DNA from: Candidatus Latescibacterota bacterium
Lineage (GTDB): Bacteria > Latescibacterota > CBDEFO01
DNA length: 64,000 bases
Assembly (NCBI GenBank): GCA_965237525.1
Contig: CBDEFO010000007.1
Coordinates: forward strand, 806,786 to 870,785
Reading direction: 5' to 3'
The notes under the pieces are model-generated. The model worked only from the letters and a program-made list of their open reading frames with translations. It was not told the DNA's origin and made no database searches. Every line of letters starts with the position of its first letter. The stretch's first letter is position 1. This document shows positions 8,145 through 43,709 of this stretch, piece by piece. The position numbers and the translations under genes were made by a program.

Positions 8145-8513
8145 TCTGCACTCCTTTACAGGCAGACGCTGGCTCGCTCTACGGTTAACAAGCCACTCAA
8201 CACTCTTTGCCCCAGGGATCCGACATAAAGCCTGACCATCATCTGGAACCCAGCGTCTACTTTGCAGGAATTCAGAAACTGTATCGTATTGACCCCGCAA
8301 ATGTATAGCAAAATAGCACATTTGTCAAGCACAAATTCATAAAAACACAAAAAAATTTGACTATGCACCTTTTGTTGGAGCACCGCACCGGACGCCGGAA
8401 TGACAACAATTGACAGATTTATAGAAGATATACGTCTTAAATATATACTAAATGAATCTCTTAGTCTGTGACAATAATCACAATTTTGTGGAGAATTCAA
8501 AAAATTTTAGTCT

Positions 8514-9989
8514 TTAAATTTGGGATTTCTTAGAGTTTGTAATACGTTTTCTGTATTTAGCTGGGTTAATTCCCATCTGATCTCTGTATTTCGCTACGGT
8601 TCTTCGGGCGAGTTCTATCCCTTCCTTCCTAAGGAGGTCGGATATAACCTGATCGCTCAGCGGTGAAGAGGGGGTCTCCTCTTTAATCAATTCCCGTATC
8701 CTATCCTTAACCGCTTTTACGGACACATCCTCCCCCTTAGACGAGCTTACAGCCCCGTCGAAGAAGTAATCCAAAGGGAACACCCCATAAGGAGTCTGGA
8801 TATACTTTCCCTTTTTTACCCTGCTTATCGTCGAGATATGCATTCCTACAGCATCGGCTATCTCCTGGAGCACAAGGGGTTTTAGATGTGTCACTCCATG
8901 TTCTAAGAAGTTCCTCTGAACGTTAACTATAAGCTGTGTCACCTTCAGCATCGTCGATTTTCTCTGTTCTATAGCGTTGATCATCCACCTTGCGTCGTTC
9001 AGCTTCTTGAGCATGAACTCTTTGGTCTCTTGGTCCACCTCTCCGGAATTCTTTTTCAAAAGTAAACGATAGATCGAACTGATCCTCAAAGAAGGGATCG
9101 TCCCATCGTTCAAGGTCACCACGTAATTGTCATCTATCTTGTTGACTATAAGATCGGGATATACATAGTCTGCAGGGTCAGATTCGACGGCGTTCAGACC
9201 CGGCTTCGGGTTCAGTCCAGAGATGACCTCTGCAGCCTCTATAACTTCATCGTAAGCCACCTTCAATAACCCGGAGATCTCGCTGTACCGGACCTTTTGA
9301 AGGTCTTCCAGATGATCTTTCACAACCTTCATAGGTAGGCTGTCCTCCATTGCCCTTTCCCTTAGTTGGATCATAAGACATTCTCTTAGATCCCTTGCTC
9401 CTATTCCGGGAGGATCAAAAGTCTGCACTATCTGGAGCACTCTCTCAACATCTGGAGCCTGCACATCCAGAGCTTCTGCTATGTCTTCAACTGAACAGGT
9501 TAAGTAGCCTTCACTGTCAATGTTGCCTATAATGAACTCGCCTATTTTTCTATCCTCCTCAGAAGAGACAGCTAAATTCAACTGTGACGATAAAACTTCA
9601 ATCATTGAAGGCCGACTCCTGTCCCATAACGGATTTTCCCTTTCCTCCCCATCAGGCCCGTTCGGATCGTACTCGGAATGGTTGTACGACCCAACATCGT
9701 AGCCTTCATCTAAGAAACTATTCCAATCTGCTTCGTCAAAATCCGACACAAGTTCCTGCTCGGCAATATCGTTATTATCAGAAGATTTATCCTTTTCCTC
9801 CTCCGGGCCCTGCTCGGAATCCTCGTCCAGCTCCTGGACCTCTTCCAAAAGGGGATTCATCTCCAACTCTTGGGAGATCAGTTGCTCCAGTTCAAGCGTG
9901 GTTACCTGAAGCAGTTGAAGCGACTGAATCATCTGAGGGGTCAGTCGCTGTTCAATAGTTAATCCTACAGACTGTGTAAGTTTAGGCAT
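8514..9989 (-). CDS. rpoN: RNA polymerase sigma-54 factor
   Basis: Q/L-rich region I, HISTISR helix-turn-helix, RpoN box ARRTVAKYR. Confidence 0.97.
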   Translation of the reverse strand: MPKLTQSVGLTIEQRLTPQMIQSLQLLQVTTLELEQLISQELEMNPLLEEVQELDEDSEQGPEEEKDKSSDNNDIAEQELVSDFDEADWNSFLDEGYDVGSYNHSEYDPNGPDGEERENPLWDRSRPSMIEVLSSQLNLAVSSEEDRKIGEFIIGNIDSEGYLTCSVEDIAEALDVQAPDVERVLQIVQTFDPPGIGARDLRECLMIQLRERAMEDSLPMKVVKDHLEDLQKVRYSEISGLLKVAYDEVIEAAEVISGLNPKPGLNAVESDPADYVYPDLIVNKIDDNYVVTLNDGTIPSLRISSIYRLLLKKNSGEVDQETKEFMLKKLNDARWMINAIEQRKSTMLKVTQLIVNVQRNFLEHGVTHLKPLVLQEIADAVGMHISTISRVKKGKYIQTPYGVFPLDYFFDGAVSSSKGEDVSVKAVKDRIRELIKEETPSSPLSDQVISDLLRKEGIELARRTVAKYRDQMGINPAKYRKRITNSKKSQI

Positions 9990-18170: not shown

Positions 18171-20033
18171 TCAGAGTTTTCCGAGCGAAACTATCCTCTT
18201 TTTTTCTATCTTCAAAAGATAGACGTTCTCGTTCTGATGGCTCTGGCTTCCGAATGAGATCCTCCCTGAAACCCCCTCAAAGTTCCTTACCTTTTGAAGA
18301 GTATTCTTCAAATTTTCCCTGGTCCTGTGACCTATAATTAGTTCTTTCAGCACCAGCGACATGGCGTCGTAGCCGAAAGCGGCTGCCGTTGAAGGCGACC
18401 TTCCAAATTTACGTCTGAACGACCTTATAAACCGATTGATCGCGGGTGATCCTAAATCTTCAAAATACCCGGATACGAATAGGGCTCCCTCCACGTAGTT
18501 TCCGCTCATTCTGATTATGTCCTGAGAGTTCCACTGGCTTCCTCCCAAAAGTTGGGTCTCGATCCTCTTCAAAGCAATCTGAGGGGCTATCAATATCACA
18601 TCATCAGAAGCGCCCGCTATCAGAACGCCGTCAATAGTCCCCACAGGTTGCAATTCCTTTTCCTCGGGGAGGTCCTCCTCAAAAGCGGGAGTGTCCACCA
18701 TTGAGGTATCCGCTGCCAATAGTATATCCTGGAGCAAGAGCCCAGCGTTCCTTATCCTCTCCAATTGCTCTTTGAAATCCTTTGTTCCCGGAAAATACCT
18801 CTCCTCCTCCAGGACTCTTCCCCCCAATTCCTCCACCCTCGATCTGAAACTTTTGGACATCTCCTGTCCGTACATGTCCATAGAGGCGATTAGGGCAAAC
18901 GTCTCCAGGTTCAGTGTCCCCACAGCGTATTCGGCCATCCTCTTTCCTTGAACCTCTGGAGTTGAGTTGATCTGAAACACGTAAGGTCCAATTGAGGCTA
19001 TCGGGCCCTCTGAAGCCGTAGGAGCGATCAGTGGAACCGATTCGGAGTTTGCCACCGCTGCTGCCCCTATAGTCGTAGAACTGTACAGAGGTCCGACTAT
19101 AGCAAGGACTCTGTCCTTCTCTATCAACTTCTGGACCACCTTTACCGCAGTTATCGGATCGCTTCTTGAATCTTCAACTATTAATTGGATTGCCCCTCTA
19201 CGGGGAAGCGAGGAGTGTTCCAAGGCTAACTTTGCCCCGTCTCTTAGATCCTCTCCGTAGATTCTTCCCTCGCCGGAAAGTGGACATATGACACCTATCT
19301 TATCCGATGGCCAGCTTGTACGATAGCTTACTTGCACTCCCACCTCTATCTCCTCCCTTAAAGCTATCGCCTCTTTCAAGAATAGACCGTCTGGGAAGTT
19401 CCTAATGTAGCTGTCCACCTTCTCAGCCGCCAGCTGAGAATAGCCCCACCTGAAAACCCATCTTGCTTCGCCTAAAAGAAGTCCTTCCTCTACAACTCCT
19501 GGATCGAACTTCTCTTTTATATCCTCGATTTCGGATTTAGACAGATTTTTCAATCCCACGACCGACAGACGCTCAGCTGCTTTCAACTTTAAGTCTGTCT
19601 CCTGTGTCCCCACTAGCACAAGCGCGTATTTGAACACAGCCTCGACGAACCTTCCCTGACGAAAATAAGAATCGCCTGCCGCAAAATCGGCGTCCCAGAG
19701 GTACCGGCTCGACGGGAACTCACTTTTCAATTCCTCGGCGACAGAGATCGCCAGTTCGTAGTCGCTCAGCTTGTAGAGCGTCTTGGCTAACATCAACTTT
19801 GCTGCGGATGACTTCTGATTGATGGGTAATTTCTCTAATACCTCCTGAAATTCGAGCCGCGCTCTTTGAAAGTGTCCCTTCACATACCTTTCTATTCCTC
19901 TTTGGAAGACGTCCTCAGCCTCCTGATCGAAAAGGCGCGTCTCTTTATCTTCCGATTCTCCGAAAGCCTCTGTGGCAAAATAGAGAACCACTGCAAATAA
20001 TAGAAATATTCTATATTCTCTGACAGGCATCAC
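18171..20033 (-). CDS. TPR + periplasmic-binding-fold protein (LppC/LpoA-like)
   Basis: Signal peptide, N-terminal TPR-like helices, C-terminal PBP1 fold (IGVICPLSG, AIVGPLYS, GYDA, FEGVSGRISF). Confidence 0.75.
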   Translation of the reverse strand: MMPVREYRIFLLFAVVLYFATEAFGESEDKETRLFDQEAEDVFQRGIERYVKGHFQRARLEFQEVLEKLPINQKSSAAKLMLAKTLYKLSDYELAISVAEELKSEFPSSRYLWDADFAAGDSYFRQGRFVEAVFKYALVLVGTQETDLKLKAAERLSVVGLKNLSKSEIEDIKEKFDPGVVEEGLLLGEARWVFRWGYSQLAAEKVDSYIRNFPDGLFLKEAIALREEIEVGVQVSYRTSWPSDKIGVICPLSGEGRIYGEDLRDGAKLALEHSSLPRRGAIQLIVEDSRSDPITAVKVVQKLIEKDRVLAIVGPLYSSTTIGAAAVANSESVPLIAPTASEGPIASIGPYVFQINSTPEVQGKRMAEYAVGTLNLETFALIASMDMYGQEMSKSFRSRVEELGGRVLEEERYFPGTKDFKEQLERIRNAGLLLQDILLAADTSMVDTPAFEEDLPEEKELQPVGTIDGVLIAGASDDVILIAPQIALKRIETQLLGGSQWNSQDIIRMSGNYVEGALFVSGYFEDLGSPAINRFIRSFRRKFGRSPSTAAAFGYDAMSLVLKELIIGHRTRENLKNTLQKVRNFEGVSGRISFGSQSHQNENVYLLKIEKKRIVSLGKL

Positions 20034-28240: not shown

Positions 28241-28615
28241 ATGTTCAATAACATAAAAATAAGAGTCGGAAATGTCGAATTAGCAGCAGAACTGAACGAT
28301 TCCGAGACAGCTAAAATGATCTGGGAAGCCCTCCCTATCTCATCCTCCTTCAGCACCTAGGGAGATGAGATATACTTCTCGATACCTGTGGAAGCGGGCG
28401 AGGAGAATGGAGCTGAAGTCGTCCAATTAGGAGATCTGGGTTACTGGCCCCCGGGTACTGCTTTCTGCATATTCTACGGCAGGACTCCGAATAGCGTAGG
28501 CGATGAAATTCGCCCCGCAAGCGCGGTTAATATCTTGGGCAAAGTTACGGACGATCCAACTGTTCTTAAGGATGCTGTAAAATCGGCTTCCAATATCTCT
28601 ATAGAAAGAGCTTAA
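28241..28615 (+). pseudogene. Cyclophilin-like (TM1367/DUF369) protein with in-frame TAG
   Basis: T*GDEIYF where the family has TWGDEIYF (TAG at 28358-28360); continues GDLGYWPPGTAFCIFYG. Confidence 0.8.
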
Positions 28616-28699
28616 GAGTGCAGTAGACAGTCAGGGAATATTTCTCGGCTTACCGCGTGATCATTTTAGGAAAAGCCCTAGTTAGAAAGCTGAAGAAAC

Positions 28700-29485
28700 A
28701 TGATCAAACAAGACGAGATTGCCGTTGCCAACCAACGGCTTTGGGAAGAAGAGGTAAAGAAGGGCTGTGGGTTCACGATCCCGTGGCTGGATATGGACGT
28801 CGCCCTCGCTCGCCAGTATGCGAAAGGTCAATTGGATCCTGACACGTACCCGTGGTGCGAAATGTACCCTCCCAGCGGGCTGCTTGACGTTGAGGGCAAG
28901 GACGTCCTCTGCCTTGCATCTGGAGGTGGCCAACAGTCAGCAGTCTTCGGGTTGCTTGGCGCACGGGTCACAGTGGTGGATTTCACCGAGGGGCAACTAG
29001 AGGGGGACAGGAAAGCGGCGGCGCACTACGGATATGAGGTGACCGCCATTCACGCTGACATGCGAGATCTATCGTGTATAGATGCTGAATCATTTGACCT
29101 CGTGCATCAGGCGGAGTCCCTCGGCTATGTCCCCGATGTTCGGCAGGTGTATTCCGAGGTCGCCAGGTTATTGAGAACCGGCGGAGTCTACCGAGTGGCT
29201 CACACACAACCGGCCGTACATTCCGCAGACTGGAATGGCGATTGCTATCGCATCACCAGGCCATATGCCGAGAGACTCCATCGCCGCGAGGACGATGGTA
29301 TTGAGTTTCACCATTATATGAGTAATATTTTCAATGGGCTTATCGCGCTGGGGTTTTCCATCGAACAGGTCCAGGAATCACCGTATCATCAGCGACGTGA
29401 CCTACTACAAGCCACCCCGGGAAGCTGGACGCATCAGCGGACGTACGTGGCGGGGTACTTCGCTATTGTGGCGAGGAAGGAGTAA
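28700..29485 (+). CDS. Class I SAM-dependent methyltransferase (cassette 1)
   Basis: VLCLASGGGQQ, VTVVD, ADM, SFDLV; flanked by GTTAGAAAGCT (28681) and its complement AGCTTTCTAAC (29488-29498). Confidence 0.88.
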   Translation: MIKQDEIAVANQRLWEEEVKKGCGFTIPWLDMDVALARQYAKGQLDPDTYPWCEMYPPSGLLDVEGKDVLCLASGGGQQSAVFGLLGARVTVVDFTEGQLEGDRKAAAHYGYEVTAIHADMRDLSCIDAESFDLVHQAESLGYVPDVRQVYSEVARLLRTGGVYRVAHTQPAVHSADWNGDCYRITRPYAERLHRREDDGIEFHHYMSNIFNGLIALGFSIEQVQESPYHQRRDLLQATPGSWTHQRTYVAGYFAIVARKE

Positions 29486-29522
29486 GGAGCTTTCTAACCT
29501 ACCTATGCAGCAGCCCCACAAA

Positions 29523-29760
29523 CTATACCGTGGTAGTAAGGGAGTGACAAGTCCTGCTGACAATTTGTAGGGAATGATATTGAATTGGTGTTTTATACAG
29601 TCCGTACATAATTCCTACAAAACTTATGATAATTATGACTTCACAGAATGCTATTTTTAATATTACAGGTTTTTTGTTAATATTTCAGTGGGGTCTTATA
29701 TAGCTCAAACAGCTGTATATAGGTTCTTAGCGTAGAAAACTGTATAAGCCCTGGTTATGT
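29523..29760 (+). repeat. Partial intI-tail + attI-like module
   Basis: Encodes RGSKGVTSPADNL* (stop 29570); GTATAAG-CCCTG-GTTATGT with G at 29754, 184 bp after the stop. Confidence 0.8.
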
Positions 29761-29783
29761 CCTATTAAGAAGGAGAATTTACC

Positions 29784-30190
29784 ATCAAGCTAAAAGTAGT
29801 AGTACACGAAGCAGAAGAAGGTGGTTATTGGGCGGAAGTGCCTTCTATTCCTGGCTGTGCAACTCAAGGAGATTCGTTTGACGAATTGTTAAACAATATT
29901 TATGAAGCCGTTGAAGGCTGTTTATCTGTAGATGTACAAGACATAGCGGTATCAGGAAAAGATAAGGTGATGGAGATTGCGGTCTAAAAGTTGTCAGTGG
30001 CAAAAGGTTGTCTCGGCTGCTTGAGCAAAAGGGCGGGGAATTGAAACGCATTAATGGGAGTCACCACATTTTTGCTAAAAGTGGCGGTAATGTACGCATT
30101 TCCGTTCCAATATATGGCAACAAGCCGTTGAAGGGTGGTTTGCAAAGGTATCTAATGAAACTTGGTGGAATTGATAAAGCTGAACTGTAA
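29784..30190 (+). pseudogene. hicB-hicA cassette copy 1 (hicB start ATC, hicA start CTA)
   Basis: Duplicate of 35156-35562; ACATAAC inverse core at 30197-30203. Confidence 0.8.
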
Positions 30191-30253
30191 ATACACACAT
30201 AACACATAATTGCACGAGACGCAAAACAGCGGGCTTTTTTGAATAAGTGATCT

Positions 30254-30388
30254 CATACCGCTCCCCTTTACAGAATGATATTTTTAATATTACAGGTTTT
30301 TTCTTAATATTTCGGTGGGGTCTTTATATAGCCTAAATAGCTGTATATAGGTTCATAGCCTAGAAGGCTGTGTAGGTCCTAGTCATGC
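30254..30388 (+). repeat. IS3 left-end remnant fused to truncated attI-like module
   Basis: CATACCGCTCCCC joined to ACAGAATGATATTTTT..; ends GTCCTA-GTCATGC (core site GTT changed to GTC at 30382). Confidence 0.75.
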
Positions 30389-30403
30389 CTCAGGGAGTAA
30401 TTA

Positions 30404-32077
30404 GTGAACCTAGATAGCTTAATCACCGTTGCCAGTTTATTCATCGGAGTTTATGCAATCCTTCCAAGGGCAAGACGATTGGAGATTTCTCTTCGTTTTG
30501 GCATGTTCGGATGGATGGTTGTACTGGCATCGTTTGTTGCAATCCTTTACCTTCAATTTTATCAAACATTCCACACGTTAGGCTTGACCCCTGGCCTCAA
30601 TCTTTCCAGATGGTCAATAACAACATCTAACGCGTCCTTTATCGTATTGTTGTGTATGGTTTTGGCTCTATATACCTATTTAGGAGTTAAAGGACTATCA
30701 AGATCTAATGTTACAAAGTTTCGTGAATTTGTCTTTGAGCTATCGAGGGAGAGGAGATACTCTGAGTTATTTTCGTTAATTGAAAGGCATCTTAATAAGA
30801 TTGAGCGCATATATTACGGTAATTTTATTGGCTCTCGACTTCGTGACTATTTTGAAAAGAACTCAAATGAGTTTTCTACACCATTGTCTCTTGCCGATAG
30901 TGCGGACGAAAGAAATAAATCTAAATCTTCGTTTATATTGAATAGAGCTGATAAATTAAAAAGGAATATATACAGACAATTGGCCGCCTACCTTCCTTCC
31001 TACGAAAGAAAAAAGGAGGTTGCGAAAGAGATAATTCATGAGGTTTTGGTAAATCGAAACACAGTAAACGCTATCGCGTCCATTAGGCCTTATTTCGCCT
31101 TACAAATTCTTGAGAAAAACTTTTACGAGAATAGCGAATTCGTTGACATCTATCTCAAATATTTAGCTGAAGATACCAAGAGTGTTTTATATCACGAGAT
31201 TCGCAACAACCAAAATCTCAAACTGCGTTATGAGTATGAGCTTCCAAAGAGAAATAGGCTTCTTAATTTCTTATTTGAAGATTGTCGTGTAGCGGAACGA
31301 TACGGACCGTACAAACCTATTGGTGAATTCGTTATAACCGAATTAGACAAGCTCTATGCACAAGCCACAGCACAAGCCACAGCACAAGCCACACCGGATC
31401 TGTACAACGAGCCTATCGGTGATTTCCAAGAAGATGGCCAATGGGAGTCCGAGTTACTCGTAGGTATACGATTCTTTGACATAATGGTGACTAGCGCCCT
31501 GTATCAAAATATAAAATATCATATGTGGCTTTATTACTATCCTCTTTTTGTAGAAAAAATCGTTAGAAATCTATCTCCAAACGAGAAACTTTCTGATCCG
31601 CATGACGAGTGGCCTACAAAATATCACTATGCCTTATACGAAATCACTTCATGTTTATGTAAATGGGTATCGTCTGTAGATCATATACCATTGAATCAAG
31701 AAAATGTTGTTTTAGGGACCACGTCTGCAGACCATGAGAACGGAAATATACCCAAAAGCAGTATGTTGGCTCTTGGGCGGATAACAGAGCACATACTAAC
31801 AAGTGTTATCATCACTGATAGATACAAGCAATATATTATGGGTATTGTTTATAAAAGATACTTTGATTTAAGACAGGTGGATAAAACACGGACGTACGCA
31901 GAAGCGCTGATAAATGCCATTCGGTGCGGTGGATCGATGATTCGTGTATCATCACTAGAATATAGCCAAACATTACTTGATACGTTCGAGGCCTTTGCCA
32001 GAGTGCCTTATGAAATGGAATTACCTAATGAATTGAGGAAGATTTTGACAGAAGATGTCAATCAAAAAGAGGCATAG
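30404..32077 (+). CDS. Hypothetical protein with N-terminal transmembrane helices (cassette 3)
   Basis: 557-aa ORF, about three hydrophobic helices then a soluble helical region; GTCATGCCTC / GAGGCATAGC boundaries. Confidence 0.75.
   Translation: MNLDSLITVASLFIGVYAILPRARRLEISLRFGMFGWMVVLASFVAILYLQFYQTFHTLGLTPGLNLSRWSITTSNASFIVLLCMVLALYTYLGVKGLSRSNVTKFREFVFELSRERRYSELFSLIERHLNKIERIYYGNFIGSRLRDYFEKNSNEFSTPLSLADSADERNKSKSSFILNRADKLKRNIYRQLAAYLPSYERKKEVAKEIIHEVLVNRNTVNAIASIRPYFALQILEKNFYENSEFVDIYLKYLAEDTKSVLYHEIRNNQNLKLRYEYELPKRNRLLNFLFEDCRVAERYGPYKPIGEFVITELDKLYAQATAQATAQATPDLYNEPIGDFQEDGQWESELLVGIRFFDIMVTSALYQNIKYHMWLYYYPLFVEKIVRNLSPNEKLSDPHDEWPTKYHYALYEITSCLCKWVSSVDHIPLNQENVVLGTTSADHENGNIPKSSMLALGRITEHILTSVIITDRYKQYIMGIVYKRYFDLRQVDKTRTYAEALINAIRCGGSMIRVSSLEYSQTLLDTFEAFARVPYEMELPNELRKILTEDVNQKEA
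31358..31393 (+). repeat. 12-bp tandem repeat x3 (GCACAAGCCACA; AQAT)
   Basis: Three perfect units, in frame. Confidence 0.9.
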
Positions 32078-32143
32078 CAAGTCGCTCCACTGGGCGGCAA
32101 TGGAGCGCAGCGGAATTGCCGCCCGTGAGCTTTATGGTTATGC
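32071..32143 (+). other. attC site
   Basis: GGCATAGC-5 bp-GCTCCAC, central stem GGGCGGCAAT/ATTGCCGCCC, GTGAGC, then GTTATGC. Confidence 0.88.
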
Positions 32144-32207
32144 CATACCGCTCCCCTTGACAGAGCGAAAATATTTTGCAAATTGGGGTTTGAGAAAGGA
32201 GGTCAAA

Positions 32208-32519
32208 GTGTCAAGCCCCGAAGTGAAAGATGGTAAGCGCTGGACGGTGACCCGTAAGGCAGAGGTCGTGTTGGCTCTTTTGAGAGGAGCGGATGTAGCA
32301 GAGGTGTGTCGGAAGAATGGAATTAGCCAGTCGCAGGCATATGCTTGGCGTGATAGTTTCTTAGAAGGAGGCCAGGAGAGTCTGAAGTCTCGGCGTGGTC
32401 GCAAGGATCCGAAGGAGCGGGAGGTCAGCCGTTTGGAGCGCAAGGTAGGGCAGTTGACGCTCCAGTTGGAGATACTCCAGGAAGTAGCCCGTCTAAAAAA
32501 AACGAAGCGATTGCCTTGA
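32208..32519 (+). CDS. IS3 OrfA (HTH + leucine zipper)
   Basis: VAEVCRKNGISQSQAYAWR, LERKVGQLTLQLEIL; AAGGAGG RBS. Confidence 0.85.
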   Translation: MSSPEVKDGKRWTVTRKAEVVLALLRGADVAEVCRKNGISQSQAYAWRDSFLEGGQESLKSRRGRKDPKEREVSRLERKVGQLTLQLEILQEVARLKKTKRLP

Positions 32520-33402
32520 GTGGACGGTTTTTGGGTCGAGGCTATTCGTACGGAAGGTGGTGGCCTATGGCTTTGGGTTTGCATCGTTCGGCTCTGTATA
32601 GGCTCAGGGATAGAGGTGTCAGTTCTTCTGTCAAAGAGCCTGTGATAGATGAAGAGCTTGCTTTTCGTATTTGAGGGATACTGGACAGAGAAGAAGCGTT
32701 TGGTCACAGGCGGGTTTGGGCGCATCTTCGTTTCAAGGAAGGGGCACGTGTCAACATCAAGAAGGTTCATAGGATAATGAAGCTTAAGGGGTGGCAGTGT
32801 AAGCTGTGGAATCCCCGATAGAATCAATCGGGGACCCCGGGAGAAAGGGGCCACGGGTTGTCCAGAAGCGTTCTGTAGTAGATCGTCCTGACAGTCTCTG
32901 GTCGGCTGACTTGACCAGGATCTATTGTGGGCAAGACGGTTGGTGTCCTCTTATTACGGTGGTGGACAACGGGAGTCGGGAGGTTCCCGGGTATCGTTTT
33001 AGTCGAAGAGGGAGGGCACTGGAGGCCACAGATGCCTTGGATCGGGCCGTGATCTCTCGATACACCTCCAAAGAGGCTGTCCCCCAGGGTCTCACTTTGC
33101 GCTCTGACAACGGCTCCATCTTTTTGTCTCGGACCTATTTGGCCAGTACCGAATATTGGGGAATTCGTCAGGAGTACATACCAAGTGGTAAGCCCGATTG
33201 GAACGGTGTTGTAGAGCGTTTTTTCAGGACCCTCAAGCAAGAGTGTGTTTGGCTTCACAATTTTGAATCTTTTGAACAGGCTGAGAAGATCATATCTCAG
33301 TGGATCGATAATTACAACAACAACAGGCTTCATTCATCCCTGGGATATAAGACCCCGGAAGAGTGGAGAAAACAATTTTATCTACTACCCCAGGTTGCTT
33401 AA
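32495..33402 (+). pseudogene. IS3 OrfB DDE transposase, disrupted
   Basis: WSADLT, RSDNGS, NGVVERFFRTLK, RLHSSLGY; in-frame TGA at 32672 and a frameshifting 23-bp insertion at 32812-32834. Confidence 0.85.
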
Positions 33403-33450
33403 TCGATGTCGCTTTCCAAGGGGGCAGTACAATGCGTCAGGAGGAAACGG

Positions 33451-33945
33451 ATGAGAACTCACATCATTTTAGCGATCTTTGTAGCGCTTTTGGCTGCATG
33501 TGCAACCGCTTATCAGAAGCAAGGTTTGATGGGAGGGTTTTCTGAAACGCAACTTGGAGAAAACGTCTTTAAAGTTACGTTCAAGGGTAATAGCTTTACG
33601 AGCCGTGAACGAGCATCAGATTTTACTCTATTGCGTTCTGCGGAATTGGCATTAGAGAAGGGATATAAATACTTCATTATAGTTGACTCAGAGAAATACA
33701 CAAAGACGGAAGCGTATACAACTCCAACAACCTCACACACAACTGGTAGCGCATACGGAACTAGGAATCGCGCATACGGTAGTGCAACAACTACAACAAG
33801 TGGAGGCAAGACATACTACTACTCAAAGCCACGGAGCACCAACACAATTGTTTGTTTCAAAGAAAAGCCAAATGTGGATGGGTTGGTTTATGACACGGCA
33901 TTCGTTACTAAATCCATCAAGAAAAAGTATGACATCAAGAAATGA
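33451..33945 (+). CDS. Lipoprotein (cassette 4)
   Basis: Lipobox LAAC; GGFSETQL, LLRSAELAL..GYKYF; GGAGG RBS. Confidence 0.8.
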   Translation: MRTHIILAIFVALLAACATAYQKQGLMGGFSETQLGENVFKVTFKGNSFTSRERASDFTLLRSAELALEKGYKYFIIVDSEKYTKTEAYTTPTTSHTTGSAYGTRNRAYGSATTTTSGGKTYYYSKPRSTNTIVCFKEKPNVDGLVYDTAFVTKSIKKKYDIKK

Positions 33946-33946
33946 T

Positions 33947-34009
33947 GCAAAACAATCGCTGTGACTAGGACGCGCAAGAAACGCGCGCCTGTTGAGCGAG
34001 CCGTTCGGC
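33947..34009 (+). other. attC site
   Basis: GCAAAAC, central stem AGG-CGCG / CGCG-CCT, GTTCGGC; TGATGCAAAAC pairs (2 mismatches) with pre-IS cassette start GTTATGCGTCA. Confidence 0.75.
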
Positions 34010-34538
34010 AACATAGTCGAAGATTCAAAGTACTATTTGCATAAGAAACAAGAAAATGTCTATTTTAACTTAGTTATTGTAATTGGTGAATATATTTGGA
34101 TAGATCCATAGATATTAAAAAAAGCTGACAAGTCGTTACAATCACACTTCTCTAATCCATGTGTGGGATTTGAAAGCTTTTCAGGCGTTGGTTCTGTCCT
34201 GTCTATTTGCCCAGTTTATGGTTGCGGAAATAACCCCTGTTGCCGTCTGGTTGTTTTGGTAGGCACTACGCTGACAATGATTTATACTCACGTTCTAAAC
34301 CTAAACCGTGGTGGAAAGGGAGTGATAAGTCCTGCTTACAATTTGTAGGAAATGATGTTTAATTGGAGTTTTATAGAGTCTCTATATAATTCCTACAAAA
34401 CTTATGATAATTATGACTCAACACAATGATATTTTTAATATTACAGGTTTTTCCTTAATATTTCAGTTGGGTCTTATATAGCTCAAATAGCAGTATATAG
34501 GTTCTTAGCAGAGAAAACTGTATAAGCCCTGGTTCGGC
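34003..34538 (+). repeat. Full-length (about 530 bp) integrase-deleted integron module, copy A
   Basis: Starts GTTCGGCAACATA; TMIYTHVLNLNRGGKGVISPAYNL* at 34274-34348; attI-like GTATAAG-CCCTG-GTT at 34532. Confidence 0.88.
34037..34066 (+). promoter_or_regulatory. Candidate sigma70 promoter TTGCAT-18 bp-TATTTT in module
   Basis: Consensus-like and retained in copies near 37857 and 40226 (last with -10 TATTTC); not tested. Confidence 0.35.
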
Positions 34539-34555
34539 AAAAACAATCTTAAAAC

Positions 34556-34792
34556 GTGAAAACTACCCAATATTTCAAATACACAAGGAAAAGACCTGAC
34601 CGTGCCTATATTAAGGATGACTGGATAGAATTTGTGATAAATAACCCTATTAAAGAAGTGATACAATCAGATGGAAGAATTAAAACGTGGGCAAAGATTA
34701 AGGAAGCTAACAAATATCTACGTGTTATATTATTGGAAGATGGTGAAACCGTCCATAATGCCTTTTTTGACAATTCATTTCGGAAGGAATAA
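34556..34792 (+). CDS. Putative RelE/BrnT-like toxin (DUF4258-like), cassette 5
   Basis: Small basic protein with YLRVILLEDGETVHNAFFD, paired with DUF2283 gene. Confidence 0.65.
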   Translation: MKTTQYFKYTRKRPDRAYIKDDWIEFVINNPIKEVIQSDGRIKTWAKIKEANKYLRVILLEDGETVHNAFFDNSFRKE

Positions 34793-34795
34793 AAA

Positions 34796-35002
34796 ATGAA
34801 AGTAAAATATTTTTCAGAGACTGATACTGCTCATATGGAATTTACGGACAAAGAGATATTTGAAACAAAAGAAATAAGTGAAAATGTATATGTCGATTTA
34901 GATCAAGAAGGAAATTTGGTGAATATGACAATAGAGCATGCAAAGGAAAATGCAAGGTTATCGGAGTTTTCATATCAAGAAGTATTGAGTGAGACAGCAT
35001 AA
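34796..35002 (+). CDS. DUF2283 putative antitoxin
   Basis: MKVKYFSETDTAHMEF..VYVDLDQEGNLVNMTIEHA; inverse core GCCGAAC at 35010 matches GTTCGGC at 34532. Confidence 0.75.
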   Translation: MKVKYFSETDTAHMEFTDKEIFETKEISENVYVDLDQEGNLVNMTIEHAKENARLSEFSYQEVLSETA

Positions 35003-35155
35003 CTTAAAAGCCGAACCAGGCACTTCACCGTACCGCCGAGCACGCCTGTTGAATGGTTTGGAGTTATGGCATCAAAGTCTCATACCGCTCCCCTCAACAG
35101 CAATGATATTTTTAATATTACAGGAGTTATGTGCTATTGAAAAGGAGAATTTACC

Positions 35156-35359
35156 ATGAAGCTAAAAGTAGTAGTACATGAAGCAGAAGAAGGTGGTTAT
35201 TGGGCGGAAGTACCCTCTATTCCTGGCTGTGCAACTCAAGGAGATTCGTTTGACGAATTGTTAAACAATATTTATGAAGCCGTTGAAGGCTGTTTATCTG
35301 TAGATGTACAAGACATAGCGGTATCAGGAAAAGATAAGGTGATGGAGATTGCGGTCTAA
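35156..35359 (+). CDS. hicB: HicB-family antitoxin (cassette 6)
   Basis: [38 protein letters not shown]. Confidence 0.88.
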
Positions 35360-35562
35360 AAGTTGTCAGTGGCAAAAGGTTGTCTCGGCTGCTTGAGCAA
35401 AAGGGCGGGGAATTGAAACGCATTAATGGGAGTCACCACATTTTTGCTAAAAGTGGCGGTAATGTACGCATTTCCGTTCCAATATATGGCAACAAGCCGT
35501 TGAAGGGTGGTTTGCAAAGGTATCTAATGAAACTTGGTGGAATTGATAAAGCTGAACTGTAA
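35356..35562 (+). pseudogene. hicA: HicA-family toxin with lost start codon
   Basis: (CTA)[22 protein letters not shown]; expected ATGA overlap with hicB stop reads CTAA. Confidence 0.7.
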
Positions 35563-35625
35563 ATACACACATAACACATAATTGCACGAGACGCAAAACA
35601 GCGGGCTTTTTTGAATAAGTGATCT

Positions 35626-35760
35626 CATACCGCTCCCCTTTACAGAATGATATTTTTAATATTACAGGTTTCTTCTTAATATTTCAGTGGGGTCATATAT
35701 AGCTCAAATAGCTGTATATAAGTTCTTAGCATAGAAAACTGAATAAGCCTAATTTAGACA
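35626..35760 (+). repeat. IS3 left-end remnant fused to truncated attI-like module
   Basis: Same layout as 30254; ends GCCTAA-TTTAGACA (core G changed to T at 35753). Confidence 0.75.
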
Positions 35761-35785
35761 GACAAGTTACTTGATAGGCATTTAT

Positions 35786-36670
35786 ATGAAGGAAAAATTG
35801 ATTCAAGAAATATGCGAACTACTCGATTCTTCTGCACGCCCAAGTATAGTCCCGATTGTACAGAAAGCTAGCCGACTAGCAGCTATCACAGATCAAGAAG
35901 AGTATCGCTATCTCTTCGACCTCCACCTGCACGGCATTGACTTGAAAATAAGCGAACCTGCACATAAGAAATGGCCAGACCGTTCGCGCCAGCCAAAATG
36001 GGATCCAGCAACTGCTTTCTCTCAGGACCGATGGTTTACTGGTGATAAGACTCAGGCATCCCCTTTAGCGCAGCTAGAAAAAACAGCCAATGCTTTGAGA
36101 GAAGGAATTGACACTTGTCCTTCGCACGACATCGAAAGTGCCTTCCATCAGCTTAAGGGAATCGAAGATATACTAGATCGTATCACAAATCGAGTTAACA
36201 CATTCATACAGGAAATTCTTTCGAGTGAAGGCTCTCACCCTCTAAAAGGGCACATAAAGACGAAAGTATTCATAGGACATGGAAAATCGAGGATATGGTT
36301 TGCACTTAAAGAGTTTCTTGAAGAAGCTTTGGGTCTTGAAACGGACGAGTTCAACCGTGAGCCTCCAGCTGGCAAGACTACGATTGAGCGACTAAATGAG
36401 ATGTTACATTCAGCCAAGTTCGCATTCTTAGTTTTTGCCGCAGAGGATAAGCATTCGGACAAGACGCTCCACGCTAGAGAGAACGTAATTCACGAAGCAG
36501 GTTTGTTTCAAGCCAAATTAGGTTTTCACCGTGCTATTATTTTACTTGAAGACGGTTGCCACGAGTTCAGTAACATCCATGGACTCGCTGAGATTCGATT
36601 TCCAAAAGGTTCAATCTTAGCAAAGTCCGAAGAAATTCGGCGAGTTCTAGAAAGGGAAGGGATTGTTTAA
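35786..36670 (+). CDS. TIR-like nucleotide-binding domain protein (CAP12/Pycsar-type TIR), cassette 7
   Basis: KVFIGHG, FAFLVFAAED, ARENVIHEAGLFQAKLG. Confidence 0.82.
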   Translation: MKEKLIQEICELLDSSARPSIVPIVQKASRLAAITDQEEYRYLFDLHLHGIDLKISEPAHKKWPDRSRQPKWDPATAFSQDRWFTGDKTQASPLAQLEKTANALREGIDTCPSHDIESAFHQLKGIEDILDRITNRVNTFIQEILSSEGSHPLKGHIKTKVFIGHGKSRIWFALKEFLEEALGLETDEFNREPPAGKTTIERLNEMLHSAKFAFLVFAAEDKHSDKTLHARENVIHEAGLFQAKLGFHRAIILLEDGCHEFSNIHGLAEIRFPKGSILAKSEEIRRVLEREGIV

Positions 36671-36684
36671 GATTTATGAGTCTT

Positions 36685-36814
36685 GTCTAACACTCGCTCA
36701 GTTGACGCGAGGGCTCCGACTTTGTGGGTTGCTTTTGTGCTCTCTCGAAGCTATTTTAGATTAGCAGGTTAGGCGCCCTGTCCTCCTTGGGTAAGGTGCT
36801 TGGGATAGTTAGGG
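36685..36814 (+). other. attC site (about 130 bp, degenerate stem)
   Basis: TGTCTAAC pairs with TTAGACA at the cassette start; ends at GTTAGGG (36808), validated by the next inverse core ATCACCCTCAC. Confidence 0.65.
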
Positions 36815-36854
36815 TGATTGTATAAAGACCAATAAATCAGAAGCTAATAATATA

Positions 36855-37748
36855 ATGAGTGGCAAAAAGAAAGTCCCAACACCAGAAGACTTTTTCAAAG
36901 TGGTTTCTCTCTATGATGTCTATATCTACTCTGGTATGGAGACATATGATTTAGCACGTATTATTTATTTCGATGGCACGCTAGATTCTTTCTGTGTTGA
37001 GTGCGGACGCAACGCAACCTTCCGCAGAAGAGCAGGAGACTTGCCATCCGAATTCCAAAGAAATGCCGTTCTAGATGAACTACGTATGCTTGGAGGAATC
37101 CAGCCTGATCCCCCACCTGATTTCGATACTGGTTCATACGAAATTACCCTAGAATGTACTCGGGATACCCTTCACGAACAACTCTTCTATGTTTTGATTT
37201 CGGATACACGCTACATTGAGCATAATAAACCTATAAAACAATTTACTTTTCAAAAAATCGGACAGCACCCTTCTGCTGGAGATTTGAATATTCCAGGTAT
37301 TGTAAAATATAAGGGGTTGCTAGGAAAACAACGCTTTCGTGAATTTGCCAGCGCTATAGGATTAGCATCGCACGATTTTGGAATAGGTGCCTATGCTTAT
37401 TTAAGAAGACTATTTGAGTCACTTATAGAGGAAGCTCATGAAAGTGCGAAAAGGGCGGAAAAGTGGGATGAGGAAGCATATAAAAATTGTCGAATGACAG
37501 AAAAGATAGCAATTCTACAAGGATCATTGCCAACATTTCTTGTCAATAATCCAAATATGTATTCAATTCTTAGCAAAGGAATTCATGATCTTTCTGAGGA
37601 TGAGTGTTTAAAACATTTTCCAGCACTAAGAATCTGTGTCGAGCTAATTTTAAATGAGAAATTAGAAGAAAAAGAGAAACAAAACAAAATTAAACAAGCC
37701 AACTCAGCGCTTAGTGCCACTAGTGGAGAACTATCCGGTGACAAATAG
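36855..37748 (+). CDS. Hypothetical protein, possible Zn-ribbon + HEPN/DUF4145-like C-terminus (cassette 8)
   Basis: CVEC near N-terminus; AYAYLRRLFESLI and ILSKGIH. Confidence 0.55.
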   Translation: MSGKKKVPTPEDFFKVVSLYDVYIYSGMETYDLARIIYFDGTLDSFCVECGRNATFRRRAGDLPSEFQRNAVLDELRMLGGIQPDPPPDFDTGSYEITLECTRDTLHEQLFYVLISDTRYIEHNKPIKQFTFQKIGQHPSAGDLNIPGIVKYKGLLGKQRFREFASAIGLASHDFGIGAYAYLRRLFESLIEEAHESAKRAEKWDEEAYKNCRMTEKIAILQGSLPTFLVNNPNMYSILSKGIHDLSEDECLKHFPALRICVELILNEKLEEKEKQNKIKQANSALSATSGELSGDK

Positions 37749-37753
37749 CATCA

Positions 37754-37829
37754 CCCTCACAATGCCTTCGAGTAGGACCTCAAAAAATGCTGGTGCTTTT
37801 TTCTCGGCCTTTCAAGGCCGCCGTTCGGC
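37754..37829 (+). other. attC site
   Basis: CCCTCAC, CCTTCGA / TCAAGG boxes with an extrahelical base, A6/T6 stem, GTTCGGC. Confidence 0.8.
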
Positions 37830-38355
37830 AACATAATCGGGGATTCAAAGTACTACTTGCATAAGAAGCAGGAAAATGTCTATTTTAACTTAGTTACTGT
37901 AATTGGTGAATATATTTGGATAGATCCATAGATATTAAAAAAAGCTGACAAGTCGTTACAATCATACTTCTCTAATCCAAGTGTGGGATTTGAAAGCTTT
38001 TCAGGCGTTGGTTCTGTCCTGTCTTTTTCCCAGTTTATGGTTGCGGAAATAACCCCTGTTGCTGTCTGGTTATTTTGGTAGGCACTACCGACAATGATTT
38101 ATACTCACGTTCTAAACCTAAACCGTGGTGGAAAGGGAGTGATAAGTCCTGCTGACAATTTGTAGGAAATGATGTTGAATTGGGGTTTTATACAGTCTGT
38201 ATATAATTCCTACAAAACTTATGATAATTATGACTTAACAGAATGATATTCTTAATTTTACAGGTTTTTCTTAATATCTCCGTGGGGTCTTATATAGCTC
38301 AAATAGCTGTCTATAGGTTCTTAAGCATAGAAAACTGTATAAGCCCTAGTTAGAC
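37823..38355 (+). repeat. Full-length integrase-deleted integron module, copy B
   Basis: Colinear with 34003-34538; TMIYTHVLNLNRGGKGVISPADNL* at 38091-38165; GTATAAG-CCCTA-GTTAGAC at 38349. Confidence 0.88.
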
Positions 38356-38480
38356 CTAATAGCTTTATTTAACACTCACTAAAATTTCATTTTGTTTTCC
38401 TGTTTGATTTGGTATTCTATTAATAGATTTTTGTTCAACCTTCTTTTATTGAAAAGCATATATTTCAGGAGGCAAATCGA

Positions 38481-39338
38481 ATGGAAATATCAGCCAATAT
38501 TTTATGTGGGGACTGCCTCGAAAAATTAAAAGAGCTTAAGAATAATTCGATAGACTTTATCTTTACCTCTCCGCCTTATGCTAATCAGCGGAAAAATACT
38601 TATGGCGGTATACATCCAGACAAATATGTTGAGTGGTTTTTGCCAATATCAAAAGAATTGCTCAGAGTTATGAAACCAACAGGTTCATTCATTCTAAATA
38701 TAAAAGAACGCGTAGTAAATGGAGAGAGACATACATATGTATTGGAACTAATATTAGCTATGCGTACACAAGGATGGTTGTGGACAGAAGAATTTATTTG
38801 GCACAAAAAGAATTGTTATCCGGGCAAATGGCCAAATCGGTTTAGAGATTCTTGGGAAAGGCTTATTCAGTTTAATAAAAATAAAAAGTTCAAGATGTTT
38901 CAGGAAACTGTCATGGTTCCTATTGGAGAATGGTCTAAAACTAGATTAAAGAATTTAAGTAAAACAGATAAAATCCGGGATGAATCTAAGGTTGGAAGTG
39001 GTTTTGGAAAAAACATTTCTAATTGGTTAAAAAGAGATATGGCTTATCCGACAAATGTAATACATATGTCAACAGAGTGTAATAATAAAAATCATAGCGC
39101 TGCTTTCCCTGAATCACTTCCTGAATGGTTTATTAAGCTTTTTACCGAAGAGAAAGATGTTGTTTTAGATCCATTTATGGGGTCTGGGGCAACTATTAAA
39201 ATGGCTCAACGTCTTAGACGAAATTCAATAGGAATTGAAATTCAAAAATCCTATTGCGATATGGTTTCTGAAAGGATCAAACCTAAAGAATATTTCTTAT
39301 TGGAAGAAAGCGACATTTATGAAGCTTCTAAGACTTAA
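38481..39338 (+). CDS. Beta-class N4-cytosine DNA methyltransferase (cassette 9)
   Basis: TSPPY before DPFMGSG; HSAAFP. Confidence 0.9.
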   Translation: MEISANILCGDCLEKLKELKNNSIDFIFTSPPYANQRKNTYGGIHPDKYVEWFLPISKELLRVMKPTGSFILNIKERVVNGERHTYVLELILAMRTQGWLWTEEFIWHKKNCYPGKWPNRFRDSWERLIQFNKNKKFKMFQETVMVPIGEWSKTRLKNLSKTDKIRDESKVGSGFGKNISNWLKRDMAYPTNVIHMSTECNNKNHSAAFPESLPEWFIKLFTEEKDVVLDPFMGSGATIKMAQRLRRNSIGIEIQKSYCDMVSERIKPKEYFLLEESDIYEASKT

Positions 39339-40056
39339 GGATGTTACAGCTTATGTCGAAAATAATATTCACCTCTTTCATTCAAAGCGTTTACAAAATC
39401 TCGAAAAGCTAAAATTAACCCAAATTCTAAAAAGAAAAAATCCTTACGTTTTTAAAGCAAAAAACATTTTAACAGCACAAGATTTAGTTAAAACTCTCCT
39501 CAATGCTCATTTATCATCCCAAGAAGAAACAATGTTTGGTGATTTTCTCGAAGGTTTAGCAATATACATTAATCAAAAAGTTTACAGTGGAAACAAATCT
39601 TCTGCGGAGGGGATAGATTTAGAGTTCGACAAAGATGGTATTCGGTATATTATTGGAATCAAGTCTGGCCCCAATTGGGGTAACAGTAGCCAAATTAACA
39701 AGCTGAGAGATAATTTCAAAAAAGCTAAAAAAATCTTAAGAACAAGCAATTCAAATCTTCAAATCATTGCTGTAAATGGATGTTGTTATGGGTGTGATAA
39801 TAAACCAGATAAGGGCGATTACTTTAAATACTGTGGACAAGAATTTTGGACATTCATTTCTGGGAATAAAGATCTGTATATTGAAATAGTTGAACCTTTA
39901 GGGCATGGAGCTAAGGAAAAGAACGAAAAAGTTTTAGAAGAATACTCCAAAATTATTAATAAGTTTACTTTTGAGTTTGGAGAAAAATATTGTGTGGACG
40001 GAAAAATAGATTGGAATGCTTTAGTAAAGTTTAATTCTTCTTTGAAAAGAAGTTAA
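39319..40056 (+). CDS. Type II restriction endonuclease (EcoO109I/PmeII-like)
   Basis: KRKNPY, SSQEETMFGDFLE, GIDLEF..IKSGPNWGNSSQ, GQEFWTFISG; overlaps the methyltransferase. Confidence 0.8.
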   Translation: MKLLRLKDVTAYVENNIHLFHSKRLQNLEKLKLTQILKRKNPYVFKAKNILTAQDLVKTLLNAHLSSQEETMFGDFLEGLAIYINQKVYSGNKSSAEGIDLEFDKDGIRYIIGIKSGPNWGNSSQINKLRDNFKKAKKILRTSNSNLQIIAVNGCCYGCDNKPDKGDYFKYCGQEFWTFISGNKDLYIEIVEPLGHGAKEKNEKVLEEYSKIINKFTFEFGEKYCVDGKIDWNALVKFNSSLKRS

Positions 40057-40067
40057 CTCCTAATCTG

Positions 40068-40197
40068 GTCTAACTTTCAAATCCACCTGACACAAAACAG
40101 CAAGCTTACATTCTAAAGTTTTCTTGCCAAGACAATTTTGCGCTTAATCTACGGTTTACTTCTATTTGTTTTGTGCTGGTGATTCAGGTCCTTCGGC
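40068..40197 (+). other. attC site
   Basis: GGTCTAAC pairs with GTTAGACC; ATCCACC / GGTGAT boxes; CACAAAACA/TGTTTTGTG stem; core site reads CTTCGGC. Confidence 0.8.
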
Positions 40198-40325
40198 AAC
40201 ATAATCAGGGATTCAAAGTACTATTTGCATAAGAAGCAAGAAAATGTCTATTTCAAGTTAGTTATTGTAATTGGTGAATATATTGGGATTAGGTAAATAC
40301 ATATCAAAATAACTGACAAGTCGTT
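40191..40325 (+). repeat. Left portion of the integron module, copy C
   Basis: TTCGGCAACATA..GATTCAAAGTACTATTTGCATAAG..CTGACAAGTCGTT matches starts of copies A and B. Confidence 0.8.
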
Positions 40326-40477
40326 GAATGAATCGTTACAAGCGTTGCACCGAAAGACTGGATTCAAGCCTTATCGAGTGCTGTTGGAGAAATTGCTGGA
40401 TGCCGGAAGTTTTTGATTTATTGACAGTAGACAGGGAGGAGCGGGGACGCCCTGTATGCTGTCTACTTACTCAGGGC

Positions 40478-42920: not shown

Positions 42921-43520
42921 ATGAACGCGGTGGACAGACTCATAGGAGAGCTTAGAAAGCTACCTGGTGTGGGAGAGCGCACAGCCCGGAGGATGACCTT
43001 CTTCATACTCAAACAGGATAGAGAAGAATCCATATCCCTGGCCAAAGCCATCGTAGTCTTAAAAGACAATGTAGGCTATTGTTCGATCTGCTTCAATGTG
43101 ACAGAACAAGACCCCTGCTCTATATGCTCAGATCCCCGCAGGGATCATAAAAAAATATGTGTCGTCGAAGAAGCCAGTGACGTGATAGCCCTCGAAAAAG
43201 CCAGCTTCAACGGGATCTATCACGTTTTGGGAGGAGCTCTGTCGCCTCTGGATGGGATAGGCCCTGAAGACCTCAAAATAGAGGAACTGATAGAAAGAGT
43301 TAAAGACAACGCAGAGGAAGTTATAATAGCCTGCAATCCCACAGTGGATGGTCAGGCAACAGCTATCCACCTGGCGGCCATACTGACTAAAATACTGGGC
43401 CTTAAAGTGTCCCAACTGTCTGTAGGACTACCCATGGGTGGAGCATTGGAGCTTTCAGATGAAGTTACCCTATCCAGGGCTTTAGAAGGACGCCAGAAGA
43501 TAGTAGACACTGGACAGTAG
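42921..43520 (+). CDS. recR: Recombination mediator RecR
   Basis: LPGVG, C4 zinc finger, ICVVE, YHVLGG.LSPLDGIGP. Confidence 0.96.
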   Translation: MNAVDRLIGELRKLPGVGERTARRMTFFILKQDREESISLAKAIVVLKDNVGYCSICFNVTEQDPCSICSDPRRDHKKICVVEEASDVIALEKASFNGIYHVLGGALSPLDGIGPEDLKIEELIERVKDNAEEVIIACNPTVDGQATAIHLAAILTKILGLKVSQLSVGLPMGGALELSDEVTLSRALEGRQKIVDTGQ

Positions 43521-43709
43521 ACAGCATACAGGGTATCCCCACTCCTACCCGACTACTGTCTTACAAGATTGCTTCGCTATCTCTTGCAATGACGGTTCAG
43601 TGGACTCAAAATGACGTTGCGAGGGCTTTGGCCTTCTGTCATTGCGAGGGGCCAAACCCCGAAGCAATCTCAAGGGAGAGGCAGGGGGTGTCCCTGTTTA
43701 CTGTCTACT
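43516..43709. repeat. Composite palindromic element: outer AGTAGACAG/CTGTCTACT around GTCATTGCGAG-type repeats
   Basis: Outer repeat overlaps the recR TAG; same outer pair at 40426-40467, single ends at 52267, 28622, about 63050. Confidence 0.65.

Follow-up and report, generated by a model that had tools for sequence, protein, structure and literature searches.

Integrons are described as possessing one attI site each and a platform, composed of promoter, integrase gene (intI) and attI, that is immobile by itself. Here we describe a chromosomal cassette array of a Candidatus Latescibacterota bacterium (genome G000, contig CBDEFO010000007.1) in which a non-coding module, containing the 3' tail of intI and an attI region, recurs between the cassettes. 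The array ends at position 40325 of the window, i.e., the whole stretch of 64,000 nucleotides that was analysed.

Among the closest described systems are the attC-ORF-ΔattI cassettes (ORF, open reading frame), in which the attI2 fragment measures up to 244 nt; IntI1 excises them, and they enter attI1 at rates like those of canonical cassettes (PMC12901181). The published cases are single, mostly 14–18 nt fragments from clinical mobile integrons (96 in 1,685 class 1 integrons). Cassettes may also be duplicated by IntI in a copy-and-paste manner (PMC8024014). Reverse (inverted-integrase) integrons, in which intI is transcribed toward attI, have been reported in Treponema, Chlorobium and Blastopirellula (PMC3607928, PMC6557892, PMC4889954); they are described with one attI per integron (PMC3607928), and the group has been called paraphyletic (PMC4889954). 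In turn, insertion and excision at chromosomal sites have been described for attG (bioRxiv 10.1101/2022.09.11.507474).

The array presented here combines known kinds, the ΔattI cassette, the reverse integron and the cluster of attC sites lacking integron-integrase (CALIN), on a scale, 16 and 11 attI cores in two genomes with no intact intI, that we did not find in print. Our literature search, thin on subscription journals, retrieved neither multi-attI arrays nor genome-wide orphan attI sites.

Module copies and the identity of their right part

We found two complete copies of the module, at 34003–34538 and 37823–38355, with 93.6% identity across 533 nt (BLAST, alignment), and five partial ones at 29520–29756, 30270–30383, 35093–35124, 35642–35749 and 40192–40325 (BLAST E 1e-6 to <1e-80); the full and partial copies listed by the initial annotation were all recovered, at slightly adjusted coordinates. 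The distance of 184 bp from the intI-tail stop to the core is indeed the same in all three tail-bearing copies. The peptide TMIYTHVLNLNRGGKGVISPADNL, said to be encoded up to the stop by the module, is exact in the 37823 copy, but the 34003 copy ends in PAYNL and the 29523 copy retains only GSKGVTSPADNL before its stop. Likewise, attC-like hairpins precede the left ends, which had been placed exactly at the core of the preceding attC, yet the core at 40191 reads CTTCGGC. Degenerate cores are seen at 30382 and 35753, and the three shortest copies open with the left end of an IS3-type element (IS, insertion sequence). Different flanking cassettes, another feature proposed from the start, are seen for the two complete modules, which share no flanking base outside the cores, but not for the two hicBA-containing units, which are duplicates sharing a cassette.

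As had been claimed, the right end of the module is not an attC: it presents no attC-like hairpin and has no R'' partner. The best R'' match to the module start is 5/7, against 7/7 in correctly positioned cassettes, and the module consequently lacks the traits of a canonical attC cassette, i.e., an R'' complementary to its own start and a bottom-strand hairpin at the right end. Its last 60–120 nt fold at −0.04 to −0.11 kcal/mol/nt and the two best attCs at −0.21 and −0.26, while other attCs of the array fold as weakly as −0.08 to −0.14. In the window, attC sites were detected by crude finders (hairpin folding and R''/R' pairing); at strict settings the attC finder returned none there, one run drew a blank both in the window and at 118 of 158 loci, and a second core/attC finder was noisy.

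As the assembly is of metagenome type and many IS copies are present, the repeats raise the question of an assembly artefact. Yet the copies are 85–94% identical rather than identical, a second genome, that of a congener (G001), has the same architecture, and the junctions are bridged by contigs from other studies. The attC/left-end junctions at 34003 and 37823 are spanned by short-read contigs of public runs; the fusion of left end and tail is present in contig X1 (0 differences; possibly the source sample) and in contigs X4/X5 of another study (14 and 13 differences), and the 2.76-kb central stretch 34438–37197 lies in one piece in contig X2, from another study. Because independent short-read contigs bridge the module junctions, misassembly, which the initial annotation had named as fatal to its proposal, is very unlikely.

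The 24-aa tail encoded by the module matches positions 294–315 of TIGR02249 (E 3e-4), the sole match among 18,950 models, in agreement with its original assignment to intI. An 85-aa IntI remnant of G001 retrieves integron integrases of 331–338 aa at 79–82% identity, one of them named Ca. Latescibacterota, and the closest full IntIs terminate in TTMIYTHVLNRGGKGVISPADNL, the same tail. We determined that a conserved motif with a GTT core lies 163–185 bp past intI at 28 of the 145 retrieved loci that comprise a full IntI and sufficient sequence downstream of it; the motif list was chosen by eye and missed locus L232. A hidden Markov model (HMM) built from these 28 foreign loci alone matches the three tail-bearing window copies and ends at their cores (E 0.0009–0.002), which corroborates the proposed identity and position of an attI with a GTT core next to intI, 184 bp past the stop. 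The model did not match the two 120-bp window copies and gave one weak match on the opposite strand. A tree of 35 IntIs groups the cognate proteins, at 100/99 support, with 8 of 11 reverse-labelled loci, and in the window, in the copy of genome G047 and in this clade intI is located upstream of attI and on the same strand as attI and the cassettes. On account of the tail profile match, the matches of the foreign HMM and the IntI tree, we assign the right part of the module, by sequence, to the attI of a same-strand ("reverse") integron clade.

An attI architecture with repeated GTGTTATA..GAAAC.ATAT-type boxes is conserved in reverse integrons of many phyla (28 loci: L031, L045, L111–L143, L153–L163, L212–L239; window 38166–38355). 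Some copies of family f6 have a short palindromic insert in the attI region (L049:17927–17950 and 19590–19615, genome G043). An internal CAGGTT of the attI region (module ~435–445; window 35118–35126; L048:12452) is the breakpoint of two independent deletions and possibly represents a secondary recombination site.

The left part of the module and copies beyond the window

The left part of the module, designated D (270 bp), had been taken for the platform's own promoter end. This could not be upheld: in G047, D is missing upstream of a cognate intI that has suffered an internal deletion but retains the start codon and a TTGACA box, and D also closes arrays, being the last array element after the final attC at both the window locus (135 bp) and the proS locus (101 bp), in G000 as well as in G001. 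Of 168 phylum genomes, 3 contain D (one of them as a weak match only), and D is preceded by attC in 8 of 8 start-bearing copies of G000 and G001; a pattern scan of metagenome contigs for D gave 0 matches. D was also considered as coding sequence and rejected, as it contains no long frame. At the head of the window locus, G001 has D218–274, then some 190 bp of DNA other than D, followed by a tail of greater length and attI; the window modules are devoid of the middle part of this head, the loss having taken place at a GACAATG microhomology. We also considered D as a cassette with an attC of its own: an 11-bp inverted match to the D start was seen in the G001 head, in a region that does not fold as attC. 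A 6-bp tail duplication is common to both window modules and the G001 head and occurs in 0 of 4 other G000 tails; accordingly, the window modules derive from this locus's own platform. D would be a non-coding cassette start or array terminus fused to the intI tail by deletion, which would make the module a long ΔattI-type cassette by architecture. At the proS locus of G001 (L080:2090–2250), the D terminus and ~60 bp of chromosomal flank are duplicated and fused to a hicBA cassette; this is chromosomal DNA captured at a cassette start.

Both G000 and G001 were surveyed for attI cores and IntI. The 16 cores of G000 (5 in the window, 11 elsewhere) and the 11 of G001, with no intact intI in either genome, support the multiplication of an intI-less platform suggested by the initial annotation. 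Module matches were found in 9 of 61 genomes, namely G000, G001 and 7 of the 13 members of family f6, while blastn of plasmids with the module gave no match and a pattern scan of viral contigs for the attI region gave 0 matches. The same chromosomal slot in G001 contains different cassettes and four attI copies. At attI loci with shared upstream flanks in the two genomes, the first cassette differs in 4 of 6 cases and is the same in 2; at two further G001 attI loci, the matching G000 site is without attI. A tree of 24 attI copies (3 of 27 were left out as too short) is star-like, with 18 of 21 branches open. Two different two-gene cassettes, one in G000 and one in G001, share an attC remainder and an IS scar from the R'' box onward (35014–35124 and L048:13068–13176).

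Neither G000 nor G001 contains a TIGR02249 match over the cut-off; we observed only remnants. The full IntI of G047 is only 46% identical to P0004 (MFC1651381.1), the cognate-type IntI, and the best identity to a cognate intI was 69% among the 168 phylum genomes and, among the matches listed, at most ~76% in a wider collection.

More distant members of the clade do retain intact platforms. At locus L123 the array opens with a platform from which intI is deleted, and an intact intI with attI (6990–9166) follows four same-strand cassettes. In L232, from an Acidobacteria metagenome-assembled genome (G168), two decayed platforms are followed by an intact one (4094–5662) positioned 230 bp past a strong attC. 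G168 (L232, L268–L279) possesses four IntIs over the cut-off, intact and reverse, at four loci, together with several tail remnants. The expected version of the platform with intact intI downstream of same-strand attC cassettes is thus found in L232 and L123, but not with the cognate intI. Extra platform copies occur at 3 of 19 reverse loci of at least 5 kb and 1 of 58 others (Fisher p 0.044; the loci are not independent, and L232 was placed in the reverse class by hand). These cases suggest that the same attI multiplication has taken place in distantly related bacteria, sometimes with an intact integrase.

These loci bear on the strict version given in the initial annotation, in which promoter, intI and attI form a dedicated mobile cassette, bounded by attI and with D as its fixed left end, that enters attC sites by attI x attC recombination, the module being its non-autonomous derivative. 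The intact platforms of L232 and L123, the four intact intI at four loci of G168, and the G001 locus, headed by D218–274 and ended by D1–135 as an opened attI circle would give, speak for it. Yet, apart from the rarity of D and its absence upstream of the cognate intI in G047, no fixed core-bounded left end immediately precedes the intI promoter. Intact intI genes have unlike leaders, namely 230 bp of non-coding DNA in L232 and, in L123, a truncated ORF followed by a toxin-antitoxin pair; the platform copies of L123 and L232 are homologous from the −35 box onward and not from a core, and the intact G168 platforms from just upstream of this box; and for 3 of the 4 intact G168 platforms no attC was detected within 3.5 kb upstream by a crude finder. 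We regard this version as improbable. A broader proposal, which we consider less likely than not, is that in a reverse-integron clade spanning phyla the whole promoter-intI-attI is mobilised by its own integrase like a cassette, enters arrays and new chromosomal sites, and then sheds intI, leaving orphan attI docking sites throughout the genome that are served in trans; if so, the integron would be a self-propagating element and not a fixed platform.

Layout of the array

The array is located between a cyclophilin-like pseudogene and tRNA-Ala/SRP RNA/dnaX, and its GC content is 40.6% as compared with ~48% in the flanks. Its parts are the following:

28673–28687 (+): attI head remnant, 9 bp plus core (G at 28681); G001 has a full tail+attI platform at the same chromosomal junction
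28681–29519 (+): methyltransferase cassette, gene 28700–29485, left half of attC only, R'' ~29492 (Pfam)
29520–29760 (+): final intI codons and attI region, core G 29754, in place of the attC right half (BLAST, HMM)
29754–30253 (+): first copy of the hicB-hicA cassette, with half of its attC (R'' 30197); hicA seems to have lost its start codon (Pfam)
30254–30388 (+): IS left-end scar joined to the terminal ~120 bp of the attI region, whose core at 30382 is degenerate
30382–32143 (+): cassette with a 557-aa unknown gene without Pfam/NCBIfam match; complete attC 32072–32143
32144–33431 (+): IS3-type element (HTH + rve), 7 bp past a cassette core (Pfam, BLAST)
33432–34009 (+): CC0125-family lipoprotein cassette and its attC (profile match, hairpin)
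34003–34273 (+): module 1 left part D, putative non-coding cassette start/array-terminus sequence (BLAST, alignment)
34274–34538 (+): module 1 intI 3' tail (stop 34348) and attI region (core G 34532) (HMM)
34532–35080 (+): two-gene cassette, 78 aa + DUF2283, half attC, R'' 35010 (Pfam)
35081–35132 (+): IS-end scar and ~32 bp of the attI region, then the next cassette's core at 35126
35126–35625 (+): hicB-hicA cassette copy 2
35626–35759 (+): IS-end scar and terminal ~120 bp of the attI region, whose core at 35753 is degenerate
35753–36807 (+): TIR-domain (CAP12/Pycsar-type) cassette, long attC (Pfam)
36808–37829 (+): cassette with a 297-aa unknown gene, decayed attC
37823–38090 (+): module 2 left part D (BLAST, alignment)
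38091–38355 (+): module 2 intI tail (stop 38165) and attI region (core G 38349) (HMM, profile match)
38349–40197 (+): DNA methylase and EcoO109I-type restriction enzyme cassette, long attC, R'' 40068 (Pfam)
40191–40325 (+): array terminus, the first 135 bp of D, followed by chromosome (tRNA-Ala, SRP RNA, dnaX); the G001 terminus is identical in kind

Hairpins and R''/R' pairs delimit attC-bounded cassettes throughout the array, several attCs being degenerate or halved. With no fewer than two attCs, and no intI nearby, the array corresponds to a CALIN, and it retains attI sites. ΔattI-type architecture, i.e., a core start after attC or attI and an end in an attI fragment, is displayed by the modules and by the methyltransferase and hicBA units. 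The methyltransferase unit, gene plus half attC, runs into 237 bp of platform; in the hicBA and DUF2283 cassettes, whose attCs are likewise halved, an IS3-type left end forms the joint to the 120 or 32 bp retained from the attI region. The 78-aa protein and DUF2283 are a probable toxin-antitoxin pair.

The IS3-type element (32144–33431) has 14 near-full copies in the genome (91–100%), whose ends adjoin several truncated attI copies. The TIR (CAP12/Pycsar-type) gene (35771–36670) and the EcoO109I-type restriction-modification pair (38481–40056) are likely anti-phage cargo, and a G001 cassette (L073) resembles a reverse transcriptase by eye. REP-like repeats at 40420–40467 and 43516–43560 adjoin the array terminus and have further copies in the genome. 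An Rfam scan of the window returned tRNAs and SRP RNA only. Consensus promoter sites in the module number 4, against 2.3 ± 1.5 expected, with only one on the + strand, in D. Fusions of truncated copies to upstream promoters amount to 7/44 at 9/12 (shuffle mean 7.9) and 5/44 at 10/12 (shuffle mean 1.5, reached in 5 of 200 shuffles), a weak signal not used as evidence. The cyclophilin-like gene (28241–28615) has an in-frame TAG where G001 reads TGG, which, together with the many mutated att boxes, points to local decay.

Multiplication of the modules and comparison with known integrons

At a probability of roughly 0.55, we propose that the intI tail and reverse attI became fused to an unrelated non-coding cassette start and that the fused unit was likely copied by IntI through the array before intI was lost. 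In this clade intI reads toward attI, and every fragment that terminates at attI therefore includes the tail of intI. Deletions at microhomologies or linked to IS would have joined a cassette start, a gene end or a half-attC to the tail or attI; the junctions are present in the array, and the order of events is our proposal. The products would be attI-terminated (ΔattI-type) units with 90–270 bp of platform, which IntI may have excised and reinserted by copy-and-paste, either via their own attI or, along with the cassette that follows, within an attC-to-attC segment. Every copy may then have served as an extra entry site for an integrase acting in trans, as the cassette differences suggest. 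Finally, the integrase gene would have been lost. The array is likely frozen and decaying, because no intact intI was found in this genome, which is 96.6% complete, and mutations affect many of the cores and R'' boxes.

Several observations weigh against this course of events. The circle junction predicted by the initial annotation did not materialise, as a direct attI-D joint was not seen in the contigs of four runs and the sole such joint has unknown letters between the two parts. An intact cognate intI in its DNA context was not found in G000 or 60 relatives. The hicBA duplicates are identical over 29874–30293, whereas 7 mismatches fall in the first 120 alignment columns and 22 in the last 98; this conversion tract is not core-bounded, and thus homologous recombination also acts here. 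A common attC scar downstream makes module 1 of G000 and the module of G001 look orthologous, and their upstream neighbours differ, so different flanks can arise without movement. Similarly, the non-orthologous copies C6:278530 and G001 380k share a rare variant, and cassette differences could therefore stem from homologous replacement. Core-bounded ends follow automatically if D is a cassette start, and are expected under any route. Moreover, a 3.1-kb segment of gene and attI is plainly duplicated (C1:76623–79721 and C7:366326–369409).

Much of this would also fit illegitimate or RecA-mediated duplications (tandem, IS-assisted or from incoming DNA) that copied stretches of the array with no integrase-driven movement of the module, shared flanks being erased by cassette gain at attI and loss at attC. 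The hicBA conversion tract and the 3.1-kb duplication, whose downstream cassettes differ, agree with it, as do the many left junctions at IS ends or microhomologies, the 6-bp marker of local derivation of the window copies, and the L221 tail+attI (97%), which is fused to a gene end at a microhomology. Yet the two complete modules share no flanks, D follows attC in every start-bearing copy, and IntI activity at the extra attI sites is still required. We consider duplication without IntI-driven movement rather unlikely.

Copying by IntI, our preferred reading, places the array next to three known systems. Like the ΔattI cassettes of class 1 and 2 integrons, its units have attC-(ORF)-ΔattI architecture within arrays, an attI fragment replacing attC (PMC12901181). 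In contrast to those cassettes, the fragments are 90–270 bp long and include the intI tail, and one unit has no ORF; against the single published cases, there are five cores in one chromosomal array and 11 elsewhere in the genome. The locus shares with reverse integrons the common direction of intI and cassettes, intI reading toward attI; unlike in those, described with one attI, here attI is multiplied and intI lost (PMC3607928). A profile trained on foreign loci detects attI here and is usable as a search tool, the attI being unknown for most integrons (PMC4889954). The cognate integrase sequence (P0004-type) and the natural substrates make module mobility directly testable. As in CALINs, SALINs (single attC sites lacking integron-integrase) and attG insertion, cassettes without a neighbouring integrase are distributed over the chromosome, possibly served in trans (PMC4889954; bioRxiv 10.1101/2022.09.11.507474). 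Yet, as distinct from CALINs and SALINs, each orphan locus here keeps its own attI, with first cassettes differing at 4 of the 6 shared loci, and could therefore accept new cassettes by attI x attC recombination. Multi-attI arrays and more than 10 orphan attI loci per genome would change the reading of CALINs, which may still take up cassettes, and suggest one route to new chromosomal integrons.

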